Virus genome (UHGV): UHGV-1792943
Direction: 5' to 3' (one strand)
From: a virus
DNA length: 29,897 bases
Below are positions 11,384 to 29,586 of this stretch, in pieces. Each line of letters opens with the position of its first letter. The stretch's first letter is position 1. Below the pieces are notes generated by a model. The model was not told where the DNA came from and ran no database searches. It saw nothing but the letters and a program-made list of their open reading frames with translations. A program made the position numbers and the translations under genes.

Positions 11384-11400
11384 GCTAAAAGCTAGCTTAA

Positions 11401-11410
11401 TTTTCTAACA
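11401..11410. promoter_or_regulatory. operator-like site (TTTTCTAACA, minus-orientation copy of TGTTAGAAAA)
   Basis: Member of a dispersed motif family with eight sites; about 170 nt upstream of the 11583 gene. Confidence 0.4.
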
Positions 11411-11497
11411 CAGTGTGTTTTTATACACTGTTGATCCGACGGCACGTGATCGAGTAGGATCGCGGTCACTGCTCCGGTAGCGACTGCCAAAAAAAGC

Positions 11498-11523
11498 AAA
11501 AGCCGCTGAGTAGCGGCTTTTGG
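11498..11523 (+). terminator. rho-independent terminator
   Basis: aagccgct-gagt-agcggctt followed by TTTT. Confidence 0.7.
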
Positions 11524-11582
11524 GTGTATAAATCCACTGGCATAGATTTATACGGTAGATAGATTTTTCACGGAACTATCTG

Positions 11583-12545
11583 GTGAGTATTTTAAATTCA
11601 GTTTCAGTTACTTTCAACACTTCTGAGTATAAAAACAACACTGAATACCACAAAAAAATCAAAGGTCATCAGTTGAGTTTTTTTGCTCGTCATAGCGGTT
11701 TTCTTTCCCCTTCACATAGCGCCATTATTGCCGAGTTCGCCAACCTGGCAGGAGCTACCGATGAATACATGATCCGTCGCTCATATGCGGATATGTCCGA
11801 GATTACAGGACGCAGTATTTCTACTGTGCGCCGGGCATTTGCCGAAGCGACGAAGTGCGGAATGCTTGTTAAGCAGCATCAGGTAGCGAATAACAATGCT
11901 CAGGTGTGTAACGTGTACCGGTTTACAACACAATTTCTCCACTTCATTCATGTAGCAATGGAGATAGGGAGTAAGCAGGGCATCAAATTTGCCAACGCCA
12001 CAAAACTGGTTAAGCAGTTGATTTCAAAGGTTCGTTATTTTTTTGAAACTGGGAACCCCCTGTTCAAATTGAACAAGTCCCCCCATGTTCAAAATGAACA
12101 GCCAATAGAAAATAAGAGTCACTCTATAGCCAAAAGAAGAGAAAGATCATGCGCGGTTCAGCCAAAGGCTTCACCAGCAGATAGTTCTCAAGCGGATAAT
12201 GGGGGGCTGGATAAAAAACCAGTAACCAGGGAAGAACATACCAACCACTGCCTGGCGGCGGCAAAAGCGAGAGCTGCAAAGCGTCGTTCAGATGAGGGGC
12301 ACGCAAAACGGCAGGCTCTGTATCGTACCGCTGAAAAGCTGGCAAAAAAATTTGCATGGATACGTAGTGCCGCTACAGCAGTGAATAAGCCTAAACAATC
12401 CAGTGCCCTGGATTTCTCAATGGATTATTCTGGCTCCCAGGGGTGTGCAACCATTGGTGAAGCCTTTGACCTGATGAAACAGCGTGGCTATCGGTCTGAA
12501 TTTGACCGGGAAGACTGGTCAATTCCGGAGGGCTTTCGGGGATGA
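11583..12545 (+). CDS. putative DNA-binding protein, possibly a replication initiator (RepL-like by context)
   Basis: GTG start, exact start uncertain. HTH-like segment MSEITGRSISTVRRAFAEA; basic C-terminal region; two 15-bp palindromes lie inside the coding sequence. Confidence 0.4.
   Translation: MSILNSVSVTFNTSEYKNNTEYHKKIKGHQLSFFARHSGFLSPSHSAIIAEFANLAGATDEYMIRRSYADMSEITGRSISTVRRAFAEATKCGMLVKQHQVANNNAQVCNVYRFTTQFLHFIHVAMEIGSKQGIKFANATKLVKQLISKVRYFFETGNPLFKLNKSPHVQNEQPIENKSHSIAKRRERSCAVQPKASPADSSQADNGGLDKKPVTREEHTNHCLAAAKARAAKRRSDEGHAKRQALYRTAEKLAKKFAWIRSAATAVNKPKQSSALDFSMDYSGSQGCATIGEAFDLMKQRGYRSEFDREDWSIPEGFRG
12061..12101. repeat. two near-identical 15-bp palindromes (TGTTCAAATTGAACA and TGTTCAAAATGAACA), each preceded by a C5-7 tract, inside the 11583-12545 CDS
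   Basis: Read directly at 12061-12075 and 12087-12101. Confidence 0.8.
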
Positions 12546-12602
12546 TGTTGCGATTGACTGTACAATAACCGTGCGGCGGGAATTTCATCGCTCGAAAATG
12601 TA

Positions 12603-12631
12603 TGTTAGAAAATTAAATTGATGTTTCTAAT
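12603..12631. promoter_or_regulatory. operator-like inverted pair (TGTTAGAAAA, 11 nt, TTTCTAAT)
   Basis: Upstream of the immI-like module. Confidence 0.45.
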
Positions 12632-12684
12632 CAAGAATGTATGATTTATATCGTCACTAAAAAACAGCATCTGATAAAAATTCT

Positions 12685-12698
12685 GTTGATCTTTCTAA
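12685..12698. promoter_or_regulatory. operator-like half site (TTGATCTTTCTAAT)
   Basis: Shares the TTGAT-N-TTTCTAAT core with the 12618-12631 half site. Confidence 0.4.
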
Positions 12699-12839
12699 TG
12701 TTCAGGCTTATATTCATGCCGTCGTAGCAAATTCTGCGACCGGGTTTAGCAGCCTGAATGTTAGTGCGGACAACCGCAGATATCCGATATTGCGGTATTT
12801 TTGTGTCCGTAAAACCGCGTTACGCCCAAATTATGGTGG

Positions 12840-12912
12840 GGCGTGATGGGGAGGCTTCGGCCTGCTGGTTTCACTAACGCCAGTCTGCTAACCCCGTCAC
12901 GTCCTGCCACCT
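12840..12912 (+). ncRNA. c4-like antisense regulatory RNA (boundaries approximate)
   Basis: Loops CACTAAC (12872-12878) and CTGCTAAC (12885-12892) are antiparallel complements of GTTTAGCAG and GTTAGTG. Those targets occur at 12746-12768 and again at 12913-12950, where GTTAGTG overlaps the SD of the downstream ORF. A UUCG tetraloop hairpin is present. Confidence 0.5.
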
Positions 12913-12961
12913 GTTTAGCAGCGGGTAGCAGGTTGTTAAACCTGTTAGTGAGGCCGTAACT

Positions 12962-13186
12962 ATGGTTAATGCCAATCCTTGCTCACGTCCAGAATTCATC
13001 TGGCGTTTTCACTCCCTGCAAAAACACTGCGATCACTTCGCAATTGCCGCAACTGAAAAAGAAGCCCGTTCTCTGATCCCTGATCAGTATGGCGTTCTCA
13101 CTGGTCGTTTCTCTACTTCCCCACAACCAAACACCAATCCCTGGTATCGCAATATTACCAATCCCGGCATTGCGGAGGCTCACTGA
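12962..13186 (+). CDS. icd: Icd-like small ORF translationally coupled to the antirepressor gene
   Basis: 74 aa; its SD is masked by the target repeat of the c4-like RNA; stop overlaps the ant start (TGATG). Architecture as in P1 immI. Confidence 0.5.
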   Translation: MVNANPCSRPEFIWRFHSLQKHCDHFAIAATEKEARSLIPDQYGVLTGRFSTSPQPNTNPWYRNITNPGIAEAH

Positions 13187-13893
13187 TGGATATCTGCATT
13201 CTCGAAAAGCCATCAATGACCAGCATTGAGATCGCGGAGCTGGTGGGAAAACGTCATGACAATGTGAAACGCACTATTGAGACATTAGACAAAGGTGGCG
13301 TTATTGTTCGTCCTCAAATTGAGGTTTTCGAAAAAATCAATAACTTAGGACTACGACGTAGTGTTGAGGCTTACGTCTTCGAAGGCGAGCAAAGCAAGCG
13401 CGATAGCATTATCGTCGTCGCGCAGCTCTCTCCCGAATTCACCGCCCGGCTGGTGGACCGCTGGCGCGAACTGGAAGAACAAGTACGCCAGCCGTTGACC
13501 GAAATAGAGATGATCGCTGCAATGGCTGCAAATGCAGTTCAGCAGCAAAAGCGGCTTCATGTTGTTGAGTCAAAGGTTAGCCAGGTTGCTGAAACCGTCG
13601 AGCAGATCAAGAAGGGCAACATGCCAGAAGGTTACATTGGCTATCGCCAGTTAGCGGCGAAATGTGGCCTGACTGAAGCCAAATGCCGTAACCTGGTCAA
13701 CGCTTACCGGATTCCCACAGATACGCATGAGTTTTTGACGCCAGAGGGGGTATTGTCGCGTCGTACTATTGTGGCCTTATCTCCCTTCATGAATGCCTTT
13801 ACCCTGATGATGTCGGAGGCTGAACACCGAGGAAAACGCTGGTATCACCCAAGGATGGGACAATTCCAGGTGATCGGTTGGGGAGGCGAGTGA
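13186..13893 (+). CDS. ant: antirepressor (Rha / Ant family)
   Basis: N-terminal SIEIAELVGKRHDNVKRTIETL is typical of Rha/antirepressor N-domains; SD GGAGG. Confidence 0.65.
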   Translation: MDICILEKPSMTSIEIAELVGKRHDNVKRTIETLDKGGVIVRPQIEVFEKINNLGLRRSVEAYVFEGEQSKRDSIIVVAQLSPEFTARLVDRWRELEEQVRQPLTEIEMIAAMAANAVQQQKRLHVVESKVSQVAETVEQIKKGNMPEGYIGYRQLAAKCGLTEAKCRNLVNAYRIPTDTHEFLTPEGVLSRRTIVALSPFMNAFTLMMSEAEHRGKRWYHPRMGQFQVIGWGGE

Positions 13894-14090
13894 TGGACAT
13901 CATGCAGGCGGTAAAAAAAATCAGGGAAGGACAGGCTGAAGTGTGCCGCCGTAAAGCATGGAGTGTTGGTATATGGATCTGGCCTGATAATTGCTCTACT
14001 ACCGGATGGTTTTGTATTAATGGATGCCAGATCCGGGAAGTCGATTTATCGACGGCGGATGCAGTCGGTAATGATTGGATCGTAACTTGA
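13893..14090 (+). CDS. small DUF2829 (Tad2)-like protein, 65 aa
   Basis: TGATG coupling to ant; SD GGGGAGG. Carries G-x3-V-x-RR-x2-W near the N-terminus and NDWIV at the C-terminus, shared with two other ORFs in the window. Confidence 0.45.
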   Translation: MDIMQAVKKIREGQAEVCRRKAWSVGIWIWPDNCSTTGWFCINGCQIREVDLSTADAVGNDWIVT

Positions 14091-14098
14091 AGTGTGAT

Positions 14099-14123
14099 GC
14101 CCCGGCCTGGCCGGGGCTTTTTC
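14099..14123 (+). terminator. rho-independent terminator
   Basis: gccccgg-cctgg-ccggggc followed by TTTTT. Confidence 0.75.
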
Positions 14124-14613
14124 ATGCCTCATTAGTTGAGGTTGCTGCGTCGCCGACAGGTAACAGAGCTGTATTGCGTGGTTCGCCAGCAGGCCAGCGA
14201 TAGCCAGACACTCTTGATGTTGGGAATGCGCGAATATTAACAGCATCCCCCTGGTTCCCACCCAAGACAAGCAGATCGCCATTGGCGCGGCGTCCGACAA
14301 CAAAGCCTACATGCCCACCGCCTGCGCGAGTAAATACAACGATACATCCGTATGCCGGTGTATCTAATTTCTCGCCCCAATCCAGATAGGATTTTGCCGA
14401 CTCAAATCTTGTTGAGCGGATGCCTACACGTTCCAGCATTGCACCGACAAATGCTGCGCACCACGGCGTTTCATCGTCTTTAATTCCACCGCGCTTAATA
14501 TCCCGCCAGAACTGGACGATCTCAGGATTGTGTTTCGCTCCTTTTATTTCGGTGACTCCAATATTTTTACGGGCTTCAATAAGCCAGCGAGGTTCATTAT
14601 TGATCATAATCAT
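14122..14613 (-). CDS. CHAP / NlpC-P60-like peptidoglycan hydrolase (TIGR02594-like)
   Basis: Candidate catalytic Cys in PWCAAFVGAM and His in GGGHVGFVVG. The true start may be the third codon (14607), which has better SD spacing. Confidence 0.55.
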   Translation of the reverse strand: MIMINNEPRWLIEARKNIGVTEIKGAKHNPEIVQFWRDIKRGGIKDDETPWCAAFVGAMLERVGIRSTRFESAKSYLDWGEKLDTPAYGCIVVFTRAGGGHVGFVVGRRANGDLLVLGGNQGDAVNIRAFPTSRVSGYRWPAGEPRNTALLPVGDAATSTNEA

Positions 14614-14744
14614 GCTCCGAATGAAAAAAGAGCAATAACTATGTTGAGAATGTGATTTCTATTACACCAAACATTATTAAACGGCATTCATCTTTAACTT
14701 TATTCAATGTATTATCTAACAGAAAAGTTAAGTTGCGCTAAGTT

Positions 14745-14756
14745 AATGATAACACT
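14745..14756 (+). promoter_or_regulatory. late-promoter-like conserved element (AATGATAACACT)
   Basis: Sits 44 nt upstream of the ATG at 14801. Confidence 0.3.
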
Positions 14757-14800
14757 GGTTATTATTGGTTTGCGTTATTTATTTGAGAAAAGAGAAAGTT

Positions 14801-15298
14801 ATGAAAAAAGCAATATTAGCGACTATTGTTTGTGCATTTGCATTATCAGGATGCGCTCCGGTTCAGACATACAACAAGCCTCAGCAAGTAAAACAGTTTG
14901 TTAAACGCCCAGCATTCCCTGTAGAGGAATATCAGGCATTGCCGAAAAAAGGCACAGGTAAGGTTAAGGGGGAATTATTTGGAGTAACTCGCGGAGGGGA
15001 TGTGAAGATTGGTGCTGGCTCCAATATCATACTGCGTCCGTATACTTCATATATCAAAAATACCCCCAAAATTGATTACGACACTCAGACCTTAGAAATA
15101 ATCGACGGCAGGGTTGCGGAATATGACAGAACTGTCCTGACTGATGCTCAAGGCAAATTTGAGTTCGAAAACGTACCACCAGGCCAGTATGAAGTGATTG
15201 GTTCGTTCAGTTGGTATGCTGGAAATTTCCCGCAAATCGTTCTTCTGAACAAAATCATTACCGTTAAGAACGGTGATGTTATCCAGGTTCAACCATGA
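14801..15298 (+). CDS. lipoprotein with a carboxypeptidase-regulatory-like beta-sandwich motif
   Basis: Signal peptide with lipobox LSGC; TDAQGKFEFENVPPGQYEV motif. Start taken at the internal ATG of the track ORF. Confidence 0.65.
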   Translation: MKKAILATIVCAFALSGCAPVQTYNKPQQVKQFVKRPAFPVEEYQALPKKGTGKVKGELFGVTRGGDVKIGAGSNIILRPYTSYIKNTPKIDYDTQTLEIIDGRVAEYDRTVLTDAQGKFEFENVPPGQYEVIGSFSWYAGNFPQIVLLNKIITVKNGDVIQVQP

Positions 15299-15338
15299 TC
15301 CCCTTTTGAGTAAGAACCTTCGGGGTGTGATTCTGCGA

Positions 15339-15350
15339 AATTAACACACT
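15339..15350 (+). promoter_or_regulatory. late-promoter-like conserved element (AATTAACACACT)
   Basis: Sits 44 nt upstream of the start at 15395. Confidence 0.35.
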
Positions 15351-15394
15351 CCATACCCTCTCAAACCGTACCGCTTAAGGCGGATTTAACGGTT

Positions 15395-18300
15395 TTGAGG
15401 GGGCTTCCTTTGGACAAAATAATTGATTCAATTAGCCAGGCCACCAGCATTGGGGCGCTGATTGAAATTGTTAGTCGGTTGCATAAACCGCGAGCTGTAG
15501 TGACCTTTGGCGTTAAGAAAGTCGATGGCGTCAGTATTCAGAAAACACGCCGGGCAGCAAACAACGCCGCAGTAAATCTTCTTAATTCCCTTCCGCCTGG
15601 CTTCGATGGGGCGAAATTAACTGACGAACAGCGCCAGATTCTTGCCGGGTATACCGGTGAAGGCGGCCTGACAGATGGTGAGGGCAGCCAATACGAATAC
15701 TATACGCCACAGTTTATGGCAGAAGGTATATGGGATCTCTTCGGCGACTACGGTATTGATAGCGGTCACGTACTGGAACCGTCAGCAGGCACAGGTATTT
15801 TCCAGGAGACAAAACGGCAGGGCATGATAATGACCAGCGCCGAACTGTCTCCGATCTCCGGTCGAATAAACCAGCTTTTGCACCCGGAAGATGATGTGAA
15901 TATCGGGGCGTTTGAGGCGCTGGCGGCGAAAGATGCAATGTATGACCACGCAGTTGGTAACGTACCGTTTGGCGAAGGGCGTTCCGGCGTCGCCGGGCTT
16001 GATCCGGCATATGCAAACGAGAAGAACGTTGGCAATTATTTTGTGCTGCGCACGATCGACAAGGTTAAGCCTGGTGGACTAATTGTATTGGTGGTGCCGA
16101 ATGGCATGACCGATGGTACGAAATACAAAAAATTGCGCGATAAAGTCAGCCGTAAAGCGGAATTTTTGGGCGCGCATCGTATGCCTTCTGGTACGTTCAG
16201 CGAATCCGGTACAGATACCGTGGTGGACGTATGGGTATTGCGTAAACACCCGGAAACCTTCCTGGAGATGATCCCCGACACGGATGATGCAACGCTCAAA
16301 TCGGCAAACGTCCTTTGGGATACCTTCCTCAAAGGGAAATGGTTTACAACCGAAGGGAAGCGATTTGTTTACGGCGACATGGAACGCACCAGCTTCCGCA
16401 ATACCCTGGTGGTGAAAAAGGACGGTCGTGTATCCAATGAGTCGATGAAAACCGCGTTATCACGCCGCTTTGAAAGCCGTATTAATTGGGATTTGCTCGG
16501 AGTAACTACCCAGGCATGGCAGGGCGCAAAAGTAGGGGATAAGCGTCTTGTAGGCGGTATCTGGCATGAGTTTGATGGCCTGAAATGGGTTAAGGACACG
16601 ACAACCAAATCCTCCGCGCTTGATGTAAGTCGATATGGTGTTTCGACGTTTGGCGATCTGCAGATCGCGTTCCAGTCAACAAACGGGATTCTGGCTTTGT
16701 CATGGGACCAGATATCGGCGATCGCGTCCGACTATCCATCGGTTGTCAGTGATGAAGTGGCAGCAATGATTCGCTTTGCTGGCAAACAGCGAGAAAAAGA
16801 CAGGGAGCGCGTTATGCGCGGTGCGTTGATAGGGCAGTTGATCAACAAGGCACTTGATTTGCGTAACCTGGGGGTGAACGTTGATGACAAACTGGCAGAT
16901 GCATCCCGCCTGGCGGCAGCAGAAGTTGCGAAGTATGGACCACCGCACGCGATTAAGCTGAATGGGCTTGCTGAAGCTGGCGCTAAAAACTGGATGACGT
17001 TCACTGGCAATGTGAAACAGGATGGTTCCACTTCTGACCTTCTGGCAGGGCGACTTGATGTAACGGATGGTGCTGCCGGTATTGACTTTACACGTCCGGA
17101 ACAAGTGATAGCACATCTTTTCAGTGATGTAGCCCTTAATCCTATAACGCTGGGCGACTTTCGTGAGGCGTTTGCTGGTGAACTGCCAGAGGACGACGAC
17201 GCGGCCCTTGAATACCTGGCGAAATTTGATGATATCGCTATTGATGGGTATGGCTGCCTGCTACCGATGGACCGCGCCACCAGCGGCGATATTGTAACCA
17301 AAACAGCATTGCTGGTGGGCTGGCGTGATGCATCAACAGGTGAGCAGAAAGCGAACTTTGAGCGTCAGTTGGCGAAAATCGAAGAGAAACGCATTTTCAC
17401 GCCACTAAATAAAGTCACCGTTAATCTGAACGCCCGCTGGCTGGATCGCCGCTTGATAAAAGAGTTCCTGGCAGAGCAGGGCTATGACGAGTTTAAGTAC
17501 ACAGAACCTGATCTGAAGATCGTCGATGGCATTCTGGTATCTCCGGACGATTACGAAGGTAAGGACGGGGTATTTACCGGCTATCAGCTACGAACCGTAA
17601 ACGGCAAAAACGGGAATGAGTTCAAGAAGGCCAACAATAAAGACGGCTTCCTGAACCAGTTAGAAAACTACCTGAACGGTGTTAAACCGCGTGGGCAGAA
17701 CGCTAACGAGTACCTGGATAAAATTGCTCAACTGGAAGTTAGCTTTAACGACTGGTTACGCACCCACCCGCAGGCGGATCAGATAGCCCGTGACTATAAC
17801 GACGCATTCAATGGCTTCATTCCGTTCACGCACTCTAACGCACCGCTTGGCCTGGAAGGGATTAGTGGAAAGCGCATTCCTCTGACTTATCAGAATGAAG
17901 AAGTTCGTCGCTTGTCAGAAGATGGGCGCGGCATCATGGGATTTGGTACCGGGCTGGGTAAAACCACGACCGCGCTTGCGCTTGAGGCGTATAACTTCGA
18001 AACAGGTCGTACTAAACGCACGTGTATTGTTGTTCCGAAGGCGGTTTATCAGAACTGGTATCACGAGGCACAGAGCTTCTACAGTGCTGATGCCTTCGCC
18101 AATATGATGTTTATCGGTCTGGATGAAGTTCGTGATGACAGCGGAAATATTCTGACCGCTCCGGTGCTTGATGAAAATGGCGAACCCCGCCTCGACAGTA
18201 ACGGGCAGCCTCTTACCAGAAATGTTGTGAAAGAGTCCGCCAGCGCCGTTATCGTTCAGCGCATGAACATGATCCCGTCGTCAAATTGGCGAACGGTCAT

Positions 18301-22282: not shown

Positions 22283-22717
22283 ATGACGACATTAATTGAC
22301 ACTGTAAAACCGACGGAATCCTACCTTGAGGACATTTTGCCGCAGGCGCTCAATGGCAGGAGTGAAGAGGCGTTTCTGGATGCATATCTGGATGGCATGG
22401 CGGAAAGGCTGAAAAGAGATCCACAGCTTTATCATCTTTATGGGCCGTGGTGGCCTGCGCTTAAAACGTTATTGCTGGAGCGTGGCGACATATCATTTGG
22501 ACAAGTTGTAGATAGTGATGTGGCAGAAATCTACAAAATGAGTCGCCCGGCGCTTACGGTTTTAGCCGGGCATCTGTATTCGAGCGATCGCCTGGAAAAT
22601 GACGCGGTATACAATCCCGTTCATGCTCTGGAAGTCGCGCCTTATGCTGATGATACAGAGCCATACGTATACACAAGTTACGACGAGTCTATAGAGAAAT
22701 ATCGAATCGTGGGGTAG
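22283..22717 (+). CDS. hypothetical protein (144 aa)
   Basis: ORF directly after the giant gene; no motif recognised. Confidence 0.45.
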   Translation: MTTLIDTVKPTESYLEDILPQALNGRSEEAFLDAYLDGMAERLKRDPQLYHLYGPWWPALKTLLLERGDISFGQVVDSDVAEIYKMSRPALTVLAGHLYSSDRLENDAVYNPVHALEVAPYADDTEPYVYTSYDESIEKYRIVG

Positions 22718-22719
22718 CC

Positions 22720-22980
22720 ATGCGGAAGAATCGTAGGTTTACGATCGACGACTTAAAAGCGTACTCACAAGGGAAGGGATACGCCCTTGAATACCACCGT
22801 TATAAGCGGGTATTTACCCTGCGGCATATAGAAAACCCTTCGAAATGGGGATGGATTTATTTTCCGCACACTGACGATAAGCTGGTGGGACTTGTTGATG
22901 ATTTATCCTATGAAGGATGGATGATTGCTATCGACAAGGCGGTTACGGAAATTAACGAACCTGATAAAATAAACCATTAA
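22720..22980 (+). CDS. hypothetical protein (86 aa)
   Basis: Starts 3 nt after the upstream stop. Confidence 0.4.
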   Translation: MRKNRRFTIDDLKAYSQGKGYALEYHRYKRVFTLRHIENPSKWGWIYFPHTDDKLVGLVDDLSYEGWMIAIDKAVTEINEPDKINH

Positions 22981-23156
22981 AAATAACAAGTTGGGTAAAT
23001 GACATACAATTTACCCGGCTTGTTGACCCGCATCACCATTTACTCTAAAAACAAGTCCGACCTGTTGCATCCGCCTATCTCTTCAGTAGTATTCCCCTCG
23101 GTTTTGATAAAACTAACGCTCTTGTTATTATCGTGTTCATGATTTCAGGAAGTTTG

Positions 23157-23165
23157 TGTTAGAAA
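23157..23165. promoter_or_regulatory. operator-like site (TGTTAGAAA)
   Basis: Immediately upstream of the 23170 start codon. Confidence 0.4.
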
Positions 23166-23169
23166 TTTG

Positions 23170-23613
23170 ATGCGAAGACGCAGGCATCATAGTGCGTATT
23201 CTGAAATATCCCCGCACGCTGCTGCACTGAGAGAGTTAGAAAGAAATCCTGACTTATTAAAACGGAATTACGAACATTACGAACAGGTTCGCGTTCTGGA
23301 TTGGCTGTATCGCAACATGCGATACGTGTATGAGCACACACACTCAACACCGAACGGCGGCCTGAGAGGCAAAAGGACAGCCATTAAGATGGTGGCAGAA
23401 GGTCAGAAGAAGGGCTATCCGGACCTTTCTATTGACCTTGCTCGTGGTGGGTATCACGGAATGCGCATTGAGATGAAGCACGGGAGAAACCGTCTGACTC
23501 CCGAACAGCTCGTCTGGATGACTCGCCTCACGGAAGCAGGCTATTACTGCTTTGAGGCGCGCAGTGCCGATGAAGCCATAAAAGCTATCACGGAATATGT
23601 AAATCTTGATTAA
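23170..23613 (+). CDS. VRR-NUC domain nuclease
   Basis: GYPDLSIDL ... IEMK ... LTPEQLVW pattern of a PD-(D/E)xK VRR-NUC fold. Confidence 0.6.
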   Translation: MRRRRHHSAYSEISPHAAALRELERNPDLLKRNYEHYEQVRVLDWLYRNMRYVYEHTHSTPNGGLRGKRTAIKMVAEGQKKGYPDLSIDLARGGYHGMRIEMKHGRNRLTPEQLVWMTRLTEAGYYCFEARSADEAIKAITEYVNLD

Positions 23614-23627
23614 ACGGAGAAATCGTT

Positions 23628-23828
23628 TTGCGTTTACTTAACGTGGCTGAACTTATCCCTGCCGGTGCTAACGTTGTTGCTCGTCGCTGCTCATGGCCTC
23701 ATTCTTTCTGTATAGAGCTTAAAAAGATGGATGATGGGGCATTAGAAGCCCGAAACATAGTTACCGGCGACAAGGTATGCATTACCCCGGAAAGCGCGAA
23801 AGCCAATGATTGGGAGTTTGTTCATTGA
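23628..23828 (+). CDS. small DUF2829 (Tad2)-like protein, 66 aa
   Basis: TTG start with SD GGAGA; VARRCSW and C-terminal ANDWEFV motifs shared with 13893-14090 and the C-terminus of 28603-29178. Confidence 0.4.
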   Translation: MRLLNVAELIPAGANVVARRCSWPHSFCIELKKMDDGALEARNIVTGDKVCITPESAKANDWEFVH

Positions 23829-23890
23829 GCAGAAAACACCACGTAAATCTGACGTTTGCTGATGACGCCGGAAGAACCAGAAGCATAACC

Positions 23891-24136
23891 ATGAAAGTTG
23901 CTTCCAGGAAAGTAACCGCGCCACTTATACGAGAGGCCGTAAGTGAACTTGATATGAGTGAGAATGCAGCTCTGTTATCGGTAAGCTGGCTGGGGAAAAT
24001 GACGGATCAGGAATACTCGGATGGTATACCCCACGGTGAGCGGCAGATAGTAAAGCGCGCGTTTAGAATTTCAGAGGTAGTTGTCGTACTGATAGCTTTG
24101 ATTTATATGGCATACATGCTACTCCAACACGTCTAA
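23891..24136 (+). CDS. small C-terminally membrane-anchored protein
   Basis: C-terminal hydrophobic helix VVVVLIALIYMAYMLL; start uncertain (track ORF begins at 23810). Confidence 0.35.
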   Translation: MKVASRKVTAPLIREAVSELDMSENAALLSVSWLGKMTDQEYSDGIPHGERQIVKRAFRISEVVVVLIALIYMAYMLLQHV

Positions 24137-24144
24137 ACGGTCAT

Positions 24145-24169
24145 AAACCCGCCAGTTGGCGGGTTTTTT
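24145..24169 (+). terminator. rho-independent terminator
   Basis: aacccgcc-agtt-ggcgggtt followed by TTTTTTG. Confidence 0.8.
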
Positions 24170-24211
24170 GTTGCCTGAGTCTTTTTATTGAAATTGCATA
24201 CTAATAAAATA

Positions 24212-24221
24212 TGTTAGAAAA
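24212..24221. promoter_or_regulatory. operator-like site (TGTTAGAAAA) within a promoter-like region
   Basis: TTGAAA, 16 nt, TATGTT arrangement overlaps the site; 25 nt upstream of the ATG at 24246. Confidence 0.45.
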
Positions 24222-24245
24222 CTAATTTCAAGAAAGGGAACAAAC

Positions 24246-25454
24246 ATGAGTCAGCAAGTAGAATCATCAAGCCTGGAGATCATCTCAACCGCAATTGAAA
24301 CGCTGCGGACACAAATCGCGCTTATACAGAAACGAAATCCGGGCGATGACCTGTCAAAGCGACTGCATGAGAGCGTCATTGCCACTACAGATAACCTGGT
24401 GGCGGAAATCAACCAGCTCCTTGATGATGGGGCAGTTGATTACAATAAGCTGGTGGATCAGTTTGAGGAATATCAGCAAGCCGTTAATGATGGCTTGATC
24501 CGTTTTTCTCAAGTCACTGGTGTATCAGCGACAGTTGAAAGCCTGGGGGATGCAGTTAATCAATTTGCCGCGAATATGCGTAATGAGATCGGCAATCTGG
24601 AGGCGCGTCTTGAGCAGGCAAATACACTGCGCAAATCTGCTGAAGTCGATTTGAGTCGTTACAAAAAAGACTATCCGCCAAGCCTGACAAAACGACTGGA
24701 TGTTGCGGAGAAAGATAACCGCACGCTGAAAAGAGAGCGTCGGGAACTAAAAGAGCGTTTAACCAAGCTAAATCAGCAATGCGTTGAGTATCAAGGCGAA
24801 CTCGTCACACTGCGTAAAAAGTTAGCAGCGGCGCAGAGCATTATTGAAACATTGAAACGAGAGTGCTCAGAGCTTGGTCATGATCTGAATCGCGCCTGTG
24901 GCATGGGGCAAAGGCCAGAGACATTCCCGCTAATGTATGACGGAAGAGAAGCTATTGCCTATATCCATGAGTTTCCGCATGGTCTGGTCGCGGAGACTGG
25001 GCAACGTGGCGAAGCGTTGCTGACGGCAAATTACCATCAGCAAATCAGAACCAGCCGCCTGCTGACGATGGATGTGATCCCGTCAGTATGGGGAACGCCG
25101 CTTTACTACCGAATTCCTGGCTTCGAAACTGACTGGAATACCGACATAGACGAATGTCTGGCAGATAAAATTATGGCGTACCTTGAAACGGATTTTCCAC
25201 GCTTGCATCGCCGGATTATGGACTCTAAGGATGCACCGATCGACGAATTGAAAATGCGTCCAGAGACGTTGGAGGCAATCAAGCAGACTGAGTTTGATAC
25301 AGTGTTCAGTGTGGCCTGCATTCCAAGCAGCTTTCATGAAAGCATTCCGTTCATGCAGGGCGATCGCCGTCAGGAAATAATTGATGCTTGCCGGGTATGG
25401 GCGAACGAGTGGGATAAGAAGAACGGTGGAGTTGAAAATCTTTACGGGAAATAA
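24246..25454 (+). CDS. hypothetical protein with N-terminal coiled coil (402 aa)
   Basis: Long ORF bracketed by a terminator and operator-like sites on both sides. Confidence 0.6.
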   Translation: MSQQVESSSLEIISTAIETLRTQIALIQKRNPGDDLSKRLHESVIATTDNLVAEINQLLDDGAVDYNKLVDQFEEYQQAVNDGLIRFSQVTGVSATVESLGDAVNQFAANMRNEIGNLEARLEQANTLRKSAEVDLSRYKKDYPPSLTKRLDVAEKDNRTLKRERRELKERLTKLNQQCVEYQGELVTLRKKLAAAQSIIETLKRECSELGHDLNRACGMGQRPETFPLMYDGREAIAYIHEFPHGLVAETGQRGEALLTANYHQQIRTSRLLTMDVIPSVWGTPLYYRIPGFETDWNTDIDECLADKIMAYLETDFPRLHRRIMDSKDAPIDELKMRPETLEAIKQTEFDTVFSVACIPSSFHESIPFMQGDRRQEIIDACRVWANEWDKKNGGVENLYGK

Positions 25455-25456
25455 TG

Positions 25457-25485
25457 TGTTAGAAAATTAAAATTGTTTTTCTAAC
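25457..25485. promoter_or_regulatory. operator-like perfect inverted repeat (TGTTAGAAAA, 9 nt, TTTTCTAACA)
   Basis: Read directly; the best palindromic copy of the motif family. Confidence 0.5.
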
Positions 25486-25607
25486 ATATTGATTATGTAG
25501 TTAACTTAACATAGAATTTTTCGTGCTGGTGGGGAGCTTCCCATGTCGCTTGCGGGTTTGATAGTCACTTCATTGTCTTTCCCCACCAGCATCAAACAAT
25601 TTTAAGT

Positions 25608-25617
25608 GTTAGAAAGT
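25608..25617. promoter_or_regulatory. operator-like site (TGTTAGAAAG)
   Basis: Member of the same family. Confidence 0.35.
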
Positions 25618-25827
25618 AAATTTTAAGGTAAGGGAAAGCTCCGGCACCGTGCAAATACATGCCCGGCAGGTTTAGTGCGTAAAGTGGTTTCAGCGAGAGC
25701 ATTTTACGGAGTAAACGACAGTGACTTGAGCCACGGAAGGTCTTTTTATGGTGTTCATTGATGATGATCTGGCAGTGAGTATGTTAAGTGGGCCAGGCTG
25801 CATCGGGTCATCATCAGTGCACATCCT

Positions 25828-25906
25828 CAACGTTAAGGAGGCGCAGAGTTGGGTTTTCCTCTTATTTTGCTGACTCTGAGTCTCCTTAACGTTGCGGTAA
25901 TGCACC
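25828..25906 (+). repeat. hairpin family member H1 (arms CAACGTTAAGGAG / CTCCTTAACGTTG, tail GCGGTAATGCACC)
   Basis: Inverted arms with the conserved 3' tail shared with H3-H6. Confidence 0.5.
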
Positions 25907-26313
25907 TATGCGGATGTGGCCTTGCATTGTGTCTTGAAAGAATGGGGTAAGGCCGGGGATATTCCCAGGGGGAGGCACCCCCGCTGCAACGAACAGCCAT
26001 AGACGGCAGTCGAGTGATGAAAACGTGAAAAGACTTTAAACCTCGTTACGGCTGGCGTGGCAAACGCGACAACCGGGATAGGACGGTGACGGGCGGAGAG
26101 AGAGCCGCTTCAAGATAAAAGCCGACTATGGATTCCTTTCTGCGGGCCTTTGAAAGTGAATCTTGCTCAGGCAGTCGGCTTTTATGTTGATACGTAGCGA
26201 TAACCGCGACAGGCGCGGCGGTAAGTATGGCGGGGTTATTCCTTCCCCGTTGAGGACACCGAGTTGCCAGGTTGACCATACGCCTAAGTGGCAATACCGC
26301 GAGTGGGATATTT

Positions 26314-26339
26314 GCCCACCTTCGGGTGGGTGTTTTTTC
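26314..26339 (+). terminator. rho-independent terminator
   Basis: cccacc-ttcg-ggtggg followed by TGTTTTTTC. Confidence 0.75.
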
Positions 26340-26522
26340 AGTGTTTTCGTCATGGTTAGCGACTTTGCGGCGGTTTAGAACCCGACCATTAAAGTAAATG
26401 CAAACGATGATCTGATGATGGTAGCGGCCTAAGAAGCCTGACGCCACGGGGTATGAGTCGTCCCCCGTCAAAAAATCGACCGCAGAGTGTCCCCGTCTGT
26501 GTATTAGGGAACGGGGAGGCAT

Positions 26523-26599
26523 AACAGGCAAGGGCGCTGGTGTGATTAACCAGATGAATGAGAAGGGTCAGGTCTTTCTGGTCAGCGCCCTTACCTGTT
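26523..26599 (+). repeat. hairpin family member H2 (arms AACAGGCAAGGGCGCTG / CAGCGCCCTTACCTGTT)
   Basis: 17-bp near-perfect stem; arm sequence related to H3. Confidence 0.45.
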
Positions 26600-26799
26600 A
26601 CGTCCCTCCCGCGTAACAGCCATTGGTTAATGGCTTTCTGGGATAATGTCTTGTAACGGGTATATCCCGTCATGCTGAAGGCGCTAATCACGCTGGAAGC
26701 CAGGGTTATGCATCCCCTGTTACCGAATTGCAGCCAGGGCGCGGTGCGCCGAAAAGCATACGGAGGTGGAAGCCCTCGCCGGAGACGTACCCGGCAAGT

Positions 26800-26876
26800 G
26801 ATGGTGTAGCTCAGTAGGATAGAGCAGCAGCCTTCTAAGCTGTCGGTCGGTGGTTCGAATCCACCCACCATCGCCA
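26800..26876 (+). tRNA. tRNA-Arg (anticodon TCT)
   Basis: Full cloverleaf folded by hand: acceptor gatggtg / caccatc, anticodon loop cttctaa, T-loop ttcgaat, encoded CCA. Confidence 0.8.
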
Positions 26877-26882
26877 ATTTAG

Positions 26883-26968
26883 GGGAGTTAGTCCGTAGGG
26901 GTAGCGGGGTAGACTGTAAATCTACTGTCATTGCGACTCGGATGGTTCGACTCCATCACTCCCCACCA
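26883..26968 (+). tRNA. tRNA-Tyr-like (anticodon GTA), long variable arm, slightly irregular D-arm
   Basis: Acceptor ggggagt / actcccc, anticodon stem gtaga / tctac with loop ctgtaaa, 15-nt variable arm, T-loop ttcgact, CCA. Confidence 0.5.
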
Positions 26969-26972
26969 AATT

Positions 26973-27048
26973 GCCGGTTTAGCTCAGTTGGTAGAGCGCC
27001 TGCCTTGTAAGCAGGATGTCAGCGGTTCGAGTCCGTTAACCGGCACCA
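26973..27048 (+). tRNA. tRNA-Thr (anticodon TGT)
   Basis: Acceptor gccggtt / aaccggc, anticodon loop cttgtaa, T-loop ttcgagt, CCA. Confidence 0.8.
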
Positions 27049-27050
27049 AC

Positions 27051-27146
27051 ACAACAGGTAAGGGTATTTTGCGACGTCGGAGATCGCCGAGCTTGGCAGA
27101 GGGTTCGAATCCCTACGAAGTACCCTTACCGTTGTGATGAATGCAC
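27051..27146 (+). repeat. hairpin family member H3, with an internal T-arm-like minihelix
   Basis: Arms ACAACAGGTAAGGGTA / TACCCTTACCGTTGTG, tail ATGAATGCAC; begins 3 nt after tRNA-Thr. Confidence 0.55.
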
Positions 27147-27315
27147 AGGCTGATGTGCCGCAACTACAGTAGTGCGCGCTTTGCGGGGCTTGCTACAACC
27201 CTGTGTCGGAATTCAGCACCGACCATCACAGTTTGATTCTCTGGCATGAGCATAACGCTGAAATAAGTCCAGTCTGGTGCGGTCTGATCACCCGCCGTTA
27301 GCTCCACGATACGGA

Positions 27316-27416
27316 GCGCACAACAGGTAAGAGTATTTGTAGAGTTCGACTCTCTACCGTGGGCTTTTTCCCGCGATGCGAGCCATAAATGCTCTTTCCG
27401 TTGTGGTGAATGCGCG
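27316..27416 (+). repeat. hairpin family member H4, with an internal perfect T-arm-like hairpin (gtagag-ttcgact-ctctac)
   Basis: Arms GCGCACAACAGGTAAGAGTATTTG / AAATGCTCTTTCCGTTGTGG, tail TGAATGCGCG. Confidence 0.55.
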
Positions 27417-27558
27417 TTGCTAGCGCGCAAGTCCGCCCTATGGCAACGAGGCGGCGTAGTAAATATCGATGCCTCAGTCATCAAGCGCACTGACCGGCCT
27501 TATGGGCTATGAAAAAAAGAGGCGCAGTCGGAGTTCAGCACCGACCATCACAATCACT

Positions 27559-27645
27559 GGAGAGTAGGGAGCATGGTGCTCAAGCGGTCTTGAAAACCGT
27601 CCCATTGCGCAAGCGATGATGGTTCGATTCCATTACTCTCCGCCA
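27559..27645 (+). tRNA. tRNA-Ser-like (anticodon TGA), type II with long variable arm
   Basis: Acceptor ggagagt / actctcc, anticodon stem gcggt / accgt with loop cttgaaa, T-loop ttcgatt, CCA. The D-arm is not perfectly canonical. Confidence 0.45.
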
Positions 27646-27768
27646 GCGCAACGTTAAGAGTATTTGGCTAATTAAGCGAATGCCGGAAGCAGAACCGGAT
27701 CACCAAATGCGTACAGGCGTCATCGCCGCCCAGTCAGCCAAATGCTCTTACCATTGCGGTGAATGCGG
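27646..27768 (+). repeat. hairpin family member H5
   Basis: Arms GCGCAACGTTAAGAGTATTTGGC / GCCAAATGCTCTTACCATTGCGG, tail TGAATGCGGC; starts at the base after the tRNA-Ser-like CCA. Confidence 0.55.
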
Positions 27769-27936
27769 CTAAGCGCACGCGGAACAGTTAAAACAGTAAA
27801 GGTGGTCTTTTTACTGGCGTAACGAGAATCCATAAGTGATCCGGCGTTAATTGTTAACTGGTTAACGTCACCGGGAGGCACCCGGCACCGCAACCTAACA
27901 GCAATGGCGTTTTGTCTTAAAAGGTGGCTGCAAGTG

Positions 27937-28065
27937 ATGGATTTTTGGGCGTTTGCCGATAAAAACCCGGAGTGGACATTATTGTTTCTGCTGGTGGTTG
28001 CATACGGGGTAGAGCAAGCGGCAAAAGCCTTACGCGGTTCTGGCAAAAAGCGTAAGCGTAATTAA
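27937..28065 (+). CDS. 42-aa small membrane peptide (MDFWAFADKNPEWTLLFLLVVAYGVEQAAKALRGSGKKRKRN)
   Basis: SD AAGGTGG 8 nt upstream of the ATG; one hydrophobic helix and a basic tail; absent from the ORF track because it is under 60 aa. Confidence 0.35.
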   Translation: MDFWAFADKNPEWTLLFLLVVAYGVEQAAKALRGSGKKRKRN

Positions 28066-28074
28066 CAGTAATCT

Positions 28075-28150
28075 GGCCCTTTAGCTCAGTGGTTAGAGCG
28101 GGCGACTCATAATCGCACGGTCACCGGTTCAAGTCCGGTAGGGGCCACCA
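28075..28150 (+). tRNA. tRNA-Ile2 (anticodon CAT, lysidine type)
   Basis: Near-identical to the enterobacterial ileX-type tRNA as recalled: acceptor ggccctt / aggggcc, anticodon loop ctcataa, T-loop ttcaagt, CCA. Confidence 0.8.
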
Positions 28151-28329
28151 CATTTGGTTGTAACACGGCGTATGGCACATGCGTCGTTAGCGGTCTGGTG
28201 TAGCTGTTAGGTACCTTTTACTAACACTGCATGGGCACACCAGGTAGCCGGAATGTGCAAGCCCCGTTCATAGCGTCGGACTGCGGATTCACCATCCTGG
28301 CGATTCGGTGTGACAGCCGGAAGAGCACG

Positions 28330-28391
28330 GCGTACAACAGGAAAAGGCGTTTAATTAGCGTGAGCGCCGTTTCCGTTGTGGTAATTGCGGC
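28330..28391 (+). repeat. hairpin family member H6 (short-loop version)
   Basis: Arms ACAACAGGAAAAGGCG / CGCCGTTTCCGTTGTGG, tail TAATTGCGGC. Confidence 0.5.
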
Positions 28392-28602
28392 TATGCGCTC
28401 GTAACGAAGCCATTTTCATTCACTACGTTCTGATAAGGGTCGTCCCGGGGCGTGGCTACCCGGGCAGGGGGGGGCCCCCCCGCCACAACTCCTTTCAATT
28501 CATCATATAGCCGCTCAGGCTGTAACCCTTAATTAATACGAAGTTACGACGTCACTACCGGTTCAGCCGGGGGATAGTCGCGCGTGTAAAAAAGGAGACG
28601 TT

Positions 28603-29178
28603 ATGTTAACGGCGAACGATAACGCGTATTTAGAAGATGATCTCGTTTTGAGTGACTTTATAGGGCGACGAGAATGCTGGACGCAAAAGCGCGAGGAGCT
28701 TTATGCAGCGTTAGTTCGTAAAGGCGTCAACATCGAAACCGCACAGAACGGTGATATGACAGTGGTAAGTGTTGGACTGCACGGCGTAAGTGTGTCAGCA
28801 ATCAATCATGAGCCGTACATTGCGTTATCCGAGTCGATGGTAAGGTTAGTTAAGTTCCTGAAGTACACAGAAGCGAATAACGTGCTCATTGCCAAAAAGA
28901 ACATCCCGTTCTCATCGGCCTTTTACTGGATGATGAAGGGGCTTGATGCCCGGCGAACATCATGGCCTAAAGGGAGCTATATATCGATGCTCCGTGGCAG
29001 TGTTGGTAGCAAAGAAAAGCTCGTCGAATTCCTGCCGGAAGAGGCATTCGATATTGTTGAAGGTTGTGATGTGATGGTTATGCCTCGCCTGGTAATGATG
29101 AATGGGGATTTACAGGCGCAGACAGACTGGTTTGCAACTGGAGTTGATATTATCGCTACTGACTGGGAGGTTTTTTGA
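28603..29178 (+). CDS. hypothetical protein with C-terminal DUF2829 (Tad2)-like domain (191 aa)
   Basis: SD AGGAG. C-terminal half carries ARRTSWPKG and AQTDWFATGVDIIATDWEVF, matching the two small ORFs at 13893 and 23628. Confidence 0.6.
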   Translation: MLTANDNAYLEDDLVLSDFIGRRECWTQKREELYAALVRKGVNIETAQNGDMTVVSVGLHGVSVSAINHEPYIALSESMVRLVKFLKYTEANNVLIAKKNIPFSSAFYWMMKGLDARRTSWPKGSYISMLRGSVGSKEKLVEFLPEEAFDIVEGCDVMVMPRLVMMNGDLQAQTDWFATGVDIIATDWEVF

Positions 29179-29558
29179 TGTACGAGGCTACTAAATTACG
29201 CACTGAGGATGCGATGCACATTGGTTGGGACATCATCACCTGCAAGATAACATCATGCAAGGCTACACGCACAGACGCCGGACACAAGAGCACAATATCA
29301 GGTTATGTCGTGATGTCAGTCAGGAGTGTGCGCATACGCTTCAGATGGAAAGCCTGCCAGGTTACATCATCAATGCCGCTTACCGTCGAGCAGGATTATT
29401 TATGCTTACCCGAAATAGACGGAGCGTTGCTGGTGGGCAATAGTGGTCGAAAAGCCGATTTTGAAGCCAGTCTGAAGATGGCGCAGGCGGTGATCAACAA
29501 ACATAAAGGGAAGTGGGAGGCAAAAGTTAAGCATGTTGTTCGTTTATCCCGCTGGTAG
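29178..29558 (+). CDS. hypothetical protein (126 aa)
   Basis: TGATG coupling to the upstream gene; no motif recognised. Confidence 0.45.
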   Translation: MYEATKLRTEDAMHIGWDIITCKITSCKATRTDAGHKSTISGYVVMSVRSVRIRFRWKACQVTSSMPLTVEQDYLCLPEIDGALLVGNSGRKADFEASLKMAQAVINKHKGKWEAKVKHVVRLSRW

Positions 29559-29586
29559 TGTTAGCAAATTGATATTAATTTTCTAA
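29558..29586. promoter_or_regulatory. operator-like inverted pair (TGTTAGCAAA, 11 nt, TTTCTAAT)
   Basis: Same spacing as the 12603-12631 site; upstream of the partial gene at the right edge. Confidence 0.45.

Follow-up and report, generated by a model that had tools for sequence, protein, structure and literature searches.

What reads a short sequence that recurs between the genes of a P1-like element, and where is the gene of its reader encoded? The question is raised by the window analysed here, the whole of a 29,897-nt stretch of viral DNA (UHGV-1792943), for which a preliminary description had listed eight sites of a dispersed operator-like motif and had proposed as their reader a C1-like master repressor with altered specificity. 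Sequence comparison places the window in a D6-type relative of P1, a P1-family phage-plasmid of E. coli. It is mosaic; its identity to phage D6 (MF356679 / AY753669), the type member of the lineage and of the same gene order, is 82–94%, some relatives are at least 99% identical to it over most of its length, and 87% homology with P1 runs from position 12686 on, starting at the c4 promoter. Sites were scanned in the nearest complete relative, NZ_LR890273 (LR890273), 17% of whose replicon carries no annotated genes, and were compared with those of D6, the further genomes L009, L010 and L011–L013, and P1 (AF234172).

As a dispersed family, the motif lies far above chance. Exact TGTTAGAAAA occurs five times in the window (11401 minus, 12603 plus, 24212 plus, 25457 plus and 25477 minus) against 0.10 expected, and no shuffle reached five. 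With at most one mismatch there are 12 copies against 2.7 expected and a maximum of 7 in shuffles; one of these 12, at 17658 inside darB, is in coding DNA. With a 21-bp weight matrix derived from 20 sites in NZ_LR890273, nine strong sites are detected at seven loci (scores 21–31) and nothing between 10 and 21. The earlier statement that the sites are always intergenic holds for all nine, three of which touch a start or stop codon (the pmgM ATG at 23170, the pmgS stop at 25452–25454 and the orf5 stop at 29556–29558). The genome-wide scan of NZ_LR890273 likewise separated coding from non-coding DNA: all 20 weight-matrix sites scoring at least 19 are non-coding, and the 15.6 kb of unannotated DNA holds 12 exact and 23 one-mismatch copies of TGTTAGAAAA, whereas the 77 kb of coding DNA contains none and seven, respectively. 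Nulls restricted to the intergenic DNA of this replicon (Markov resampling and permuted 10-mers) predict 0.05–0.06 exact and 1.6 one-mismatch copies. In D6, 14 sites scoring at least 20 and two weaker matches were found at syntenic positions. The consensus of the asymmetric ~17–21-bp site is (T)RTGTTAGAAAAYYAAWWT, and the D6-type operator sequence reads TGTTAGAAAAYYAAWWT, with the core GTTAGAAA. The candidate sites in the window are the following.

11394–11414, minus strand: putative single operator (ACTGTGTTAGAAAATTAAGCT), score 28.2, immediately following the stop codon of pro; repL (11583–12545) starts 169 bp downstream
12599–12636: putative operator pair ahead of the immunity operon c4/icd/ant; left arm 12599–12619, plus strand, strong, score 28.7; right arm 12616–12636, minus strand, degenerate (GATTAGAAAC), score 2.9, in the correct fixed +17 register
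12684–12704, minus strand: weak match (TGAACATTAGAAAGATCAACA), score about -0.6
14705–14725: weak candidate, score 10.0, the sole other weight-matrix score of at least 10 in the window; not before a late operon
23153–23173, plus strand: putative single operator, score 21.2, overlapping the start codon of pmgM (VRR-NUC) at 23170
24208–24228, plus strand: putative single operator before pmgS (24246–25454), score 29.4
25453–25473, plus strand, and 25470–25490, minus strand: putative operator pair TGTTAGAAAA-N10-TTTTCTAACA, scores 31.0 and 27.1, starting at the pmgS stop codon
25603–25623, plus strand: putative single operator, score 24.4, just past a stem-loop (25523–25592)
29555–29575, plus strand, and 29572–29592, minus strand: putative operator pair, scores 22.7 and 26.6, starting at the orf5 stop codon

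Sites are thus either single and asymmetric, ~17–21 bp long, or arranged as inverted pairs of a fixed 30 bp; five strong pairs and additional degenerate ones all show an offset of 17. The spacing between the 10-mers is exactly 10 nt in every pair, rather than the 9–11 nt given earlier, and the ends of two pairs shift by 1–2 nt (25486, not 25485; 29559–29588, not 29558–29586). Half of the strong sites in LR890273 (10 of 20) are true single asymmetric sites, with pair-register partners at background level. Seven of the eight proposed loci carry strong sites. The eighth, 12685–12698, does not: the match at 12684–12704 overlaps a conserved promoter-like site (12686–12714, TTGATC-17-TATATT), of which only the hexamers are conserved, while its TTTCTAAT is not kept in D6, L009 or L010. 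Considering its weak score as well, it is probably not a functional operator. The inverted pair proposed at 12603–12631 stands as far as its register is concerned, the right arm being degenerate.

Most sites are conserved in D6 and other relatives, and the ones ahead of c4, pmgS and lpa stand out as islands without variation. The site at 11394–11414 is kept in D6, L009 and L010, next to a pro 3' end that diverges. At c4, the operator core is 100% conserved in D6 and L010, compared with 68% for the flanks, and L009 retains a pair despite a TnpB insertion and rearrangement. Downstream follow the C4 RNA and the a1b1 sequences it targets. P1 homology begins only at 12686, downstream of the window's pair, and c4 is a mosaic boundary at which P1 and the window each have their own operator in non-homologous DNA just upstream. 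The 29-bp island ACTAATAAAATATGTTAGAAAACTAATTT at pmgS is invariant in the window, D6, L009 and L010, within flanks of 66–69% identity. The core GTGTTAGAAA is kept at 25603–25623 in D6, L009 and L010, and at 23153–23173 in D6 and L009, where the tail is not; L010 has a 1-nt deletion there. In two of the window's pairs, one arm is specific to the lineage: the right arm at 25453–25490 (core identity 0.43 to D6; left arm conserved) and the left arm at 29555–29592 (57–64%; the right-arm core shows 100% identity to D6 and 93% to L010). In D6, both of these pairs are represented by single sites or have degenerate arms. Sites with the core GTTAGAAAA persist at matching positions in elements whose C1 is just 43–50% identical.

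At c4, pmgS, the tRNA leader and 25603, the sites are overlapped or directly adjoined by promoter-like hexamers. The c4 pair overlaps the -35 of a promoter-like site at 12618–12645 (TTGATG-16-TATGAT), and the pmgS operator, preceded by a terminator-like hairpin (24145–24166), contains the -10-like hexamer TATGTT (24210–24215) of another (24188–24215). The pair at 25453–25490 abuts the -35 of a conserved promoter-like site (25489–25517, TTGATT-17-TAGAAT) that points into a 1.3-kb non-coding leader and a tRNA cluster (26800–28150). A minus-strand promoter-like site (25626–25599, TTAAAA-16-TAAAAT) overlaps 25603–25623. At pmgM, a strong promoter-like site (23104–23131, TTGATA-16-TATTAT, with TG before the second hexamer) precedes the operator by 22 bp, an arrangement that would mean a roadblock rather than occlusion. 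The late-promoter activator gene lpa (ATG at 29666) starts 74 bp downstream of the pair at 29555–29592; convincing sigma-70 hexamers were absent from both lpa and repL in the promoter scan. The register of site to promoter-like hexamers is not uniform, ranging from -27 to +59.

As suspected in the preliminary description, tblastn found no C1-like gene in the window. A homologue was identified in its relatives, which encode a 345-aa protein between pacB and a Cre-like (Cre/Dre-type) recombinase, the position of c1 in P1, about 3 kb past the window's right end (in LR890273, 37223–38260, minus strand). This protein is 80% identical to the annotated c1 product of D6; the D6 GenBank records annotate c1 but not the operators. 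Compared to P1 C1, it shows 21% identity (BLASTP, E 1e-7), shares the precomputed Pfam family PF27008 (Phage_P7_repressor_C1) and aligns by profile-profile comparison over 230 columns (hhalign, 97.6% probability, E 4e-12). It exceeds P1 C1 by 62 aa and has an additional helical hairpin at its C terminus. In the relatives, a motif site is found 12 bp ahead of the start codon of its gene, which suggests that the c1 homologue is autoregulated.

P1 contains 22 dispersed C1 operators with the asymmetric consensus ATTGCTCTAATAAATTT (PMC8546580), in agreement with the preliminary description; P1 operators are also annotated in AF234172. The likeness drawn there to the scattered operators of P1 is borne out by site numbers (20 dispersed asymmetric sites in NZ_LR890273, single and paired as in P1), by the homologous candidate repressor, encoded between pacB and a recombinase as in the ImmC arm of the tripartite immunity system of P1/P7, and by the gene junctions. 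When matches to the P1 consensus were set against the D6-type sites of LR890273, D6 and the window, shared junctions were found at c1, lpa, c4/icd/ant, repL, ref (5' and 3'), hrdC, pmgM and pmgS, after cre/dre and ahead of the tRNAs. In position, 11394–11414 matches the P1 operator ahead of kilA-repL (between ant1 and kilA); the D6-type element has no kilA before repL. The pmgM, pmgS and lpa sites correspond to P1 operators between 26 and pmgL-pmgM, between pmgQ and pmgR-pmgS, and between pdcB and lpa, respectively, and a P1 operator pair at the dmt 3' end lies just upstream of DNA homologous to 26201–26878 of the window. What differs is the sequence of the sites. No P1-type operators (at most three mismatches) were found in the window, LR890273, D6 or L011–L013, and no D6-type sites in P1; TGTTAGAAAAYYAAWWT and ATTGCTCTAATAAATTT are each confined to their own phage type. 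The two operator matrices are only marginally similar, with a shared TCTAA/TTAGA core (p about 0.05), and D6-type pairs span 30 bp with cores 21 bp apart, compared with 28 bp and 13 bp in P1. The D6-type elements therefore form a heterospecific sister group rather than members of the P1/P7 specificity group. Accessory parts of the P1 system were also sought, at two candidate places: for the co-repressor Lxc (Bof), an 86-aa gene next to ulx (22720–22980) has no similarity to the P1 protein, and for the anti-repressor Coi, the relatives have no annotated ORF between c1 and the recombinase.

Taken together, homology, syntenic placement and operator exclusivity make a C1-like repressor of altered specificity, encoded outside the window, the best-supported reader, as had been proposed. 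Very probably, the motif sites serve the C1 prophage repressor of D6-type elements as operators and correspond in function to the C1 operators scattered over P1. We infer both that the protein binds the motif and that binding represses.

Regulatory sites of this kind might instead be read by another protein, such as a Rha/Roi-type antirepressor, one of the small DNA-binding proteins of the early operon or a host nucleoid protein, and the element does encode other putative DNA-binding proteins (a Rha family regulator at 13186–13893, and a 'DNA-binding protein' and HTH genes elsewhere). This is unlikely, considering that the sites follow the C1 regulon of P1 from one gene junction to the next, with one immediately ahead of c1, that the motif goes together with C1 of the D6-type clade in elements differing in accessory genes, and that it is absent from P1 despite a common host and many common genes. 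Single asymmetric sites are also more in keeping with the C1 family than with dimeric HTH proteins, the operator of P1 C1 being asymmetric (PMC8546580). Less probable still is that the motif forms part of a specialised promoter, for example one for Lpa-dependent late genes or other phage-directed transcription. Its 5' part (TATGTT or TAATGT) can resemble a -10 hexamer, and the best -10 at pmgS lies inside it, but the motif is absent upstream of the window's late operons (lydA/darA, prt/pro and darB), precedes lpa and c1 themselves, occurs in both orientations and in inverted pairs of fixed geometry, and keeps no constant offset to promoter-like hexamers. A functionless chance repeat, or what is left of a small mobile or repeated element, to which the AT-richness of the motif and of the intergenic DNA might point, is hardly credible given the excess of exact copies over the intergenic nulls, the lack of extended flanking homology between copies and the conservation of sites above that of their flanks.

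With C1 as the reader, the 345-aa homologue would, in the plasmid-prophage state, bind asymmetric ~17–21-bp sites, alone or as 30-bp inverted pairs, and shut off the overlapped or adjoining promoters of repL, for lytic replication; of c4-icd-ant, for secondary immunity and the antirepressor; of the pmgM and pmgS operons and the tRNA operon; and of lpa, for the late-gene activator. Outside the window, the same control would extend to further genes, among them ref, hrdC and c1 itself. Once the repressor lost its activity, every target would be freed simultaneously and lytic growth would begin. Like lambda CI or LexA, such a master repressor would silence the prophage through promoter-proximal sites, some of them inverted pairs. 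Unlike those two-fold symmetric operators, about half of the strong D6-type sites are single and asymmetric; moreover, the sites are genome-wide rather than clustered in one immunity region, and no HTH family match was detected in the 345-aa repressor.

For the predicted structures of both C1 types, Tus was the only significant structural match (TM-scores 0.38–0.50); neither type has sequence similarity to Tus. Tus works as a monomer, clamping an asymmetric site of about 21–23 bp; C1, too, probably binds as a monomer. Asymmetric sites are common to both systems, the P1 C1 operator included (PMC8546580), whereas Tus serves replication-fork arrest and C1 the transcriptional repression of the prophage. 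The likeness between C1 and Tus is a fold-level resemblance between models, not family membership. The chances appear about even that the whole C1 family (PF27008), including P1 C1, has a Tus fold, with a monomer clamping asymmetric DNA via an interdomain beta-sheet. By analogy with Tus, bound C1 might not only occlude promoters but also block RNA polymerase or replication forks in an orientation-dependent manner; the location of the pmgM site past its promoter, and of sites at the 3' ends of genes, would fit this.

In kind, the D6-type system is ordinary and expected; its DNA specificity is different from that of P1. To our knowledge, nearly all other phage repressors have operators that are not asymmetric, unlike those of the P1 type. 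A Tus fold, if true, would explain this asymmetry, and also why pair geometry is free to differ, at 28 bp in P1 and 30 bp in D6-type elements.

The motif TGTTAGAAAA occurs in five exact copies in the window compared with 0.10 expected, and in 12 copies when up to one mismatch is allowed (2.7 expected). Sites were scored with a 21-bp weight matrix built from the 20 best sites of LR890273 (NZ_LR890273.1, the nearest complete relative) and kept fixed; an iterated matrix drifted to generic AT-rich DNA and was dropped. Against a background with a mean of −37 and a 99th percentile of −11, nine window sites score 21–31 and none falls between 10 and 21. Every strong site is non-coding, and we conclude that the dispersed motif is real.

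Strong sites in the window and their promoter context
11394–11414, minus strand: site before repL; no convincing promoter hexamers found
12599–12619, plus strand: site before c4; −35 inside the right arm of the pair
23153–23173, plus strand: pmgM site; a strong promoter-like site lies ∼22 bp upstream of it
24208–24228, plus strand: pmgS site; −10 hexamer TATGTT inside the site, which a terminator precedes
25453–25473, plus strand, and 25470–25490, minus strand: pair at the tRNA leader; −35 abuts the pair, promoter-like site conserved in all relatives
25603–25623, plus strand: single site; a minus-strand promoter-like site overlaps the operator
29555–29575, plus strand, and 29572–29592, minus strand: pair before lpa; no convincing promoter hexamers found

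Equal frequency in coding DNA, which the preliminary description had named as an outcome that would speak against its reading of the motif, was not seen in LR890273: its 15.6 kb of unannotated DNA holds 12 exact copies and 23 with up to one mismatch, compared with 0 and 7 in 77 kb of coding DNA, and all 20 sites scoring at least 19 are non-coding. Markov-resampled intergenic DNA of LR890273 gave 0.06 exact and 1.6 one-mismatch copies, and permuted 10-mers searched in the real intergenic DNA gave 0.05 and 1.5. Seven of the eight loci originally proposed hold at least one strong site, but 12685–12698 scores about −0.6 and its sequence TTTCTAAT is not conserved in phage D6 (the type phage of the lineage) or in the relatives L009 or L010; it is probably no working operator. 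The pair proposed at 12603–12631 is in the correct register but has a degenerate right arm (score 2.9). A weak operator-like site, TTTCTGTTAGATAATACATTG (14705–14725, minus strand, score 10.0), was also seen in the divergent intergenic region between a peptidoglycan hydrolase gene and a carboxypeptidase-regulatory-like ORF.

The D6-type consensus, (T)RTGTTAGAAAAYYAAWWT, with the operator core GTTAGAAA, carries information over ∼17–19 bp and has no internal symmetry. Half of the LR890273 sites (10/20) form five inverted pairs in which the two 21-mers are always offset by 17, giving a 30-bp unit, TGTTAGAAAA-N10-TTTTCTAACA, in which 21 bp separate the TTAGA core from the TCTAA core. For several more sites the partner is in this register but degenerate, and true single sites, with partners at background level, include those before c1, before pmgS, after the recombinase gene and at 25603.

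The repressor gene was said not to be obvious in the window, and indeed no C1-like gene was found there. The candidate reader is encoded in LR890273:

37223–38260, minus strand: 345-aa C1 homologue, between pacB and a Cre-like recombinase gene

This is the place of c1 in P1, and the start codon follows a strong site at a distance of 12 bp. The protein shares 80% identity with the D6 protein whose annotation reads 'c1, prophage repressor' and 21% with P1 C1 over 240 colinear residues (E 1e-7); WP_029701835 and D6 gp1 are examples of such C1 homologues. Profile–profile comparison of the D6-type and P1-type families gave 97.6% probability (E 4e-12, 230 columns), and both carry the precomputed Pfam family PF27008, Phage_P7_repressor_C1; the D6-type protein differs in being longer by ∼100 C-terminal residues. 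A local Pfam search of the D6-type repressor returned no match, PHROGs only a family of unknown function and sequence searches of the PDB nothing; at the syntenic gene no Lxc homologue was found.

P1 (OP279344) was scanned with the published P1 C1 operator consensus, ATTGCTCTAATAAATTT (PMC8546580), and its matches were compared with the D6-type sites of LR890273 and D6.

Placement of operator matches in P1 and of D6-type sites in LR890273 and D6
P1, junctions: cre/c8, c8/ref, lyz/ssb, simB/icd (c4), ant1/kilA-repL, upfB/uhr-hrdC, 26/pmgL-pmgM, pmgM/pmgN, pmgQ/pmgR-pmgS, pap/pmgT, pdcB/lpa
P1, other positions: 3′ end of ref, 3′ end of dmt (a pair, ahead of tRNAs), around c1 and coi
D6 type: before c1, after the recombinase gene, before and after ref, before c4/icd, before repL, before hrdC/rdgC, before pmgM, before and after pmgS (the latter ahead of tRNAs), before lpa

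As far as can be read from these sequences, the predicted regulon wiring is kept between P1 and the D6-type elements while the site sequence is replaced. No D6-type site scoring at least 14 is present in P1, and a search for P1-type sites with up to three mismatches found none in the window, in LR890273, in D6 or in the more distant elements L011–L013. At c4 the homology to P1 starts sharply at window position 12686, in the −35 of the c4 promoter, and continues at 87% identity; immediately before this point the two types carry different operators, in DNA that is unrelated. The P1 counterpart of window 26201–26878 (85% identity) directly follows the dmt 3′ operator pair. Matrix comparison left only a TCTAA/TTAGA core in common (p ∼0.05, column-permuted nulls), the best alignment being in reverse orientation and the same orientation not significant; at orthologous junctions, five sites are opposite in orientation versus two the same, which is not decisive. 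Pairs measure 28 bp in P1 compared with 30 bp in the D6 type.

The P1-like placement and the site before c1 support the preliminary reading of the sites as operators of a C1-like repressor. Both facts oppose the disfavoured proposals that the sites are read by another regulator or are a specialised promoter element, as do the late operons, which have no strong sites ahead of them, and the occurrence of sites in both orientations with a fixed pair geometry. A chance repeat is opposed by the same observations and by the nulls confined to intergenic DNA. We read the sites as the predicted operators of a system that is a heterospecific sister to that of P1 C1. GenBank records of D6 annotate c1 but not the operators. 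The motif string was met in the full-text literature only in unrelated primers and similar, never in a phage context, and the searchable literature yielded nothing relevant on D6-like operators; a prior description is possible.

At c4, pmgS, the tRNA leader and 25603, the sites overlap or adjoin promoter-like hexamers. A fixed site-to-promoter distance was sought and not found, the register not being uniform. P1 C1 binds adjacent operators, inhibiting the coi and c1 promoters (PMC8546580), and by analogy repression would proceed by occlusion, or by a roadblock at some sites. Next to the repL operator, an inverted repeat, CAGTGTGTTTTTATACACTG (11410–11429), is conserved in D6. The repL leader also contains a minus-strand promoter-like site (11617–11589, 10/12) and a minus-strand terminator (11522–11497), resembling the antisense promoter of the P1 lytic replicon.

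Aligned with D6, L009 and L010, the window shares with all three an unchanged 29-bp island that surrounds the pmgS site, set in flanks of 66–69% identity. Conservation is 93–100% in the core of the c4 site and in the right arm of the lpa pair. The right arm of 25453–25490 and the left arm of 29555–29592 are lineage-specific. In L009 (NZ_AP027678.1, locus 2948–4400), the repL–c4 spacer has been rearranged and has received an inserted gene for TnpB, of the RNA-guided endonuclease family; a D6-type operator pair is nevertheless retained before c4 at 4368/4385. In three further relatives, L011–L013, whose C1 is only 43–50% identical, GTTAGAAAA-core sites lie before c1, after the integrase gene and before lpa, and also near pmgM and pmgS.

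Gene order and features of the window (D6 annotation)
First: lydA, lydB, hdf, darA, ddrA, ddrB, prt, pro
Second: repL; then c4 RNA, icd, Rha/Roi-type antirepressor
Third: minus-strand peptidoglycan hydrolase; then darB, ulx, orf13
Fourth: pmgM, orf11, pmgR; then pmgS
Fifth: 1.3 kb non-coding, five tRNAs, Tad2-like gene, orf5, start of lpa
3779–8634: mosaic segment, ddrB region and small minus-strand ORFs
12708–12760: a1b1 targets of C4 RNA (Rfam)
12829–12914: C4 antisense RNA (Rfam)

By our gene list, coding DNA makes up about 81% of the window. Segments 11300–13000 and 22900–25800 are 92% and 84% identical to D6, and their P1/P7 match is confined to the c4–icd segment; the second, a 2.9-kb piece, has 100% identity with NZ_LR890273.1, an E. 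coli plasmid of 92.8 kb, and matches 113 PLSDB plasmids of Escherichia, Salmonella and Shigella. Identity to LR890273 is 99.5% over 8634–27230 and 99.4% over 27527–29897, the window being no exact substring. From ∼3779 to 8634 it diverges from this otherwise 99.5% identical plasmid and instead matches other D6-like plasmids, e.g. CP035876, at 98% identity, indicating that the window's replicon is a recombinant; no exact counterpart was found in PLSDB or in complete RefSeq E. coli genomes. Besides c4–icd–ant, D6-type elements carry a second icd/antirepressor module (LR890273 60412–60765, D6 74022–75178) with an ash family gene, an Icd-like gene and a Rha/KilA-type antirepressor.

Around 1.3 kb (25489–26800) has no credible ORF and is bounded by the conserved, operator-flanked promoter-like site at 25489–25517 and the cluster of five tRNAs (ARAGORN). 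It opens with a stem-loop, 25523–25592 (GCUGGUGGGGA...UCCCCACCAGC), with apparently compensatory changes in D6 (GGGCG/CGCCC) and a fold z-score of only −1.4; an Rfam search of 25400–26900 at permissive thresholds gave sub-threshold noise only. The stretch may represent a small RNA, or a leader of the tRNA operon that is under repressor control. Both ARAGORN and Rfam place the tRNAs (26800–28150; Arg/Tyr/Thr/Ser/Met) on the plus strand, whereas the homologous tRNAs of D6 (MF356679, 7145–7850; Asn/Thr/Ser) are annotated on the strand equivalent to minus in the window, so that the D6 record may have the strand wrong. The ORF at 28603–29178 is annotated in RefSeq relatives as a Thoeris anti-defense Tad2 family protein (PF11195, Tad2-like, in L011 and L012); its place, with the tRNA cluster on one side and the lpa operator pair on the other, makes early expression probable.

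AlphaFold2 models of D6-type and P1-type C1 (pLDDT 85.5 and 78.3), built from one shallow alignment common to both, had a single significant match among solved structures, E. coli Tus (Foldseek probability 1.00; E-values of 8.5e-8 to 1.9e-6 with the D6-type model, 7.6e-9 to 3e-8 with the P1-type model). The next-best matches had E-values of 0.08 or worse; TM-scores to Tus are modest (0.38–0.50), and no sequence signal links C1 to Tus. A Tus-like fold for C1 is probable from these models, not established. Tus binds its asymmetric Ter site as a monomer, which would fit the asymmetric C1 operators. The searchable literature yielded no paper linking Tus and C1; if true, the fold would be the first structural explanation of the operator asymmetry.

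Phage-plasmids of the D6-like kind are frequent in E. coli, Salmonella and Shigella. With the operator consensus, sequence alone is enough to predict the regulon of the repressor and to assign any such element to the P1-type or D6-type immunity group, and annotation of the early promoters of D6-like elements is helped. The consensus also supports the design of orthogonal repressor–operator pairs beside the Cre/lox and Dre/rox systems already exploited from the same two phages. The comparison of P1 with D6 suggests that repressor specificity is swappable while the wiring of the regulon is kept.
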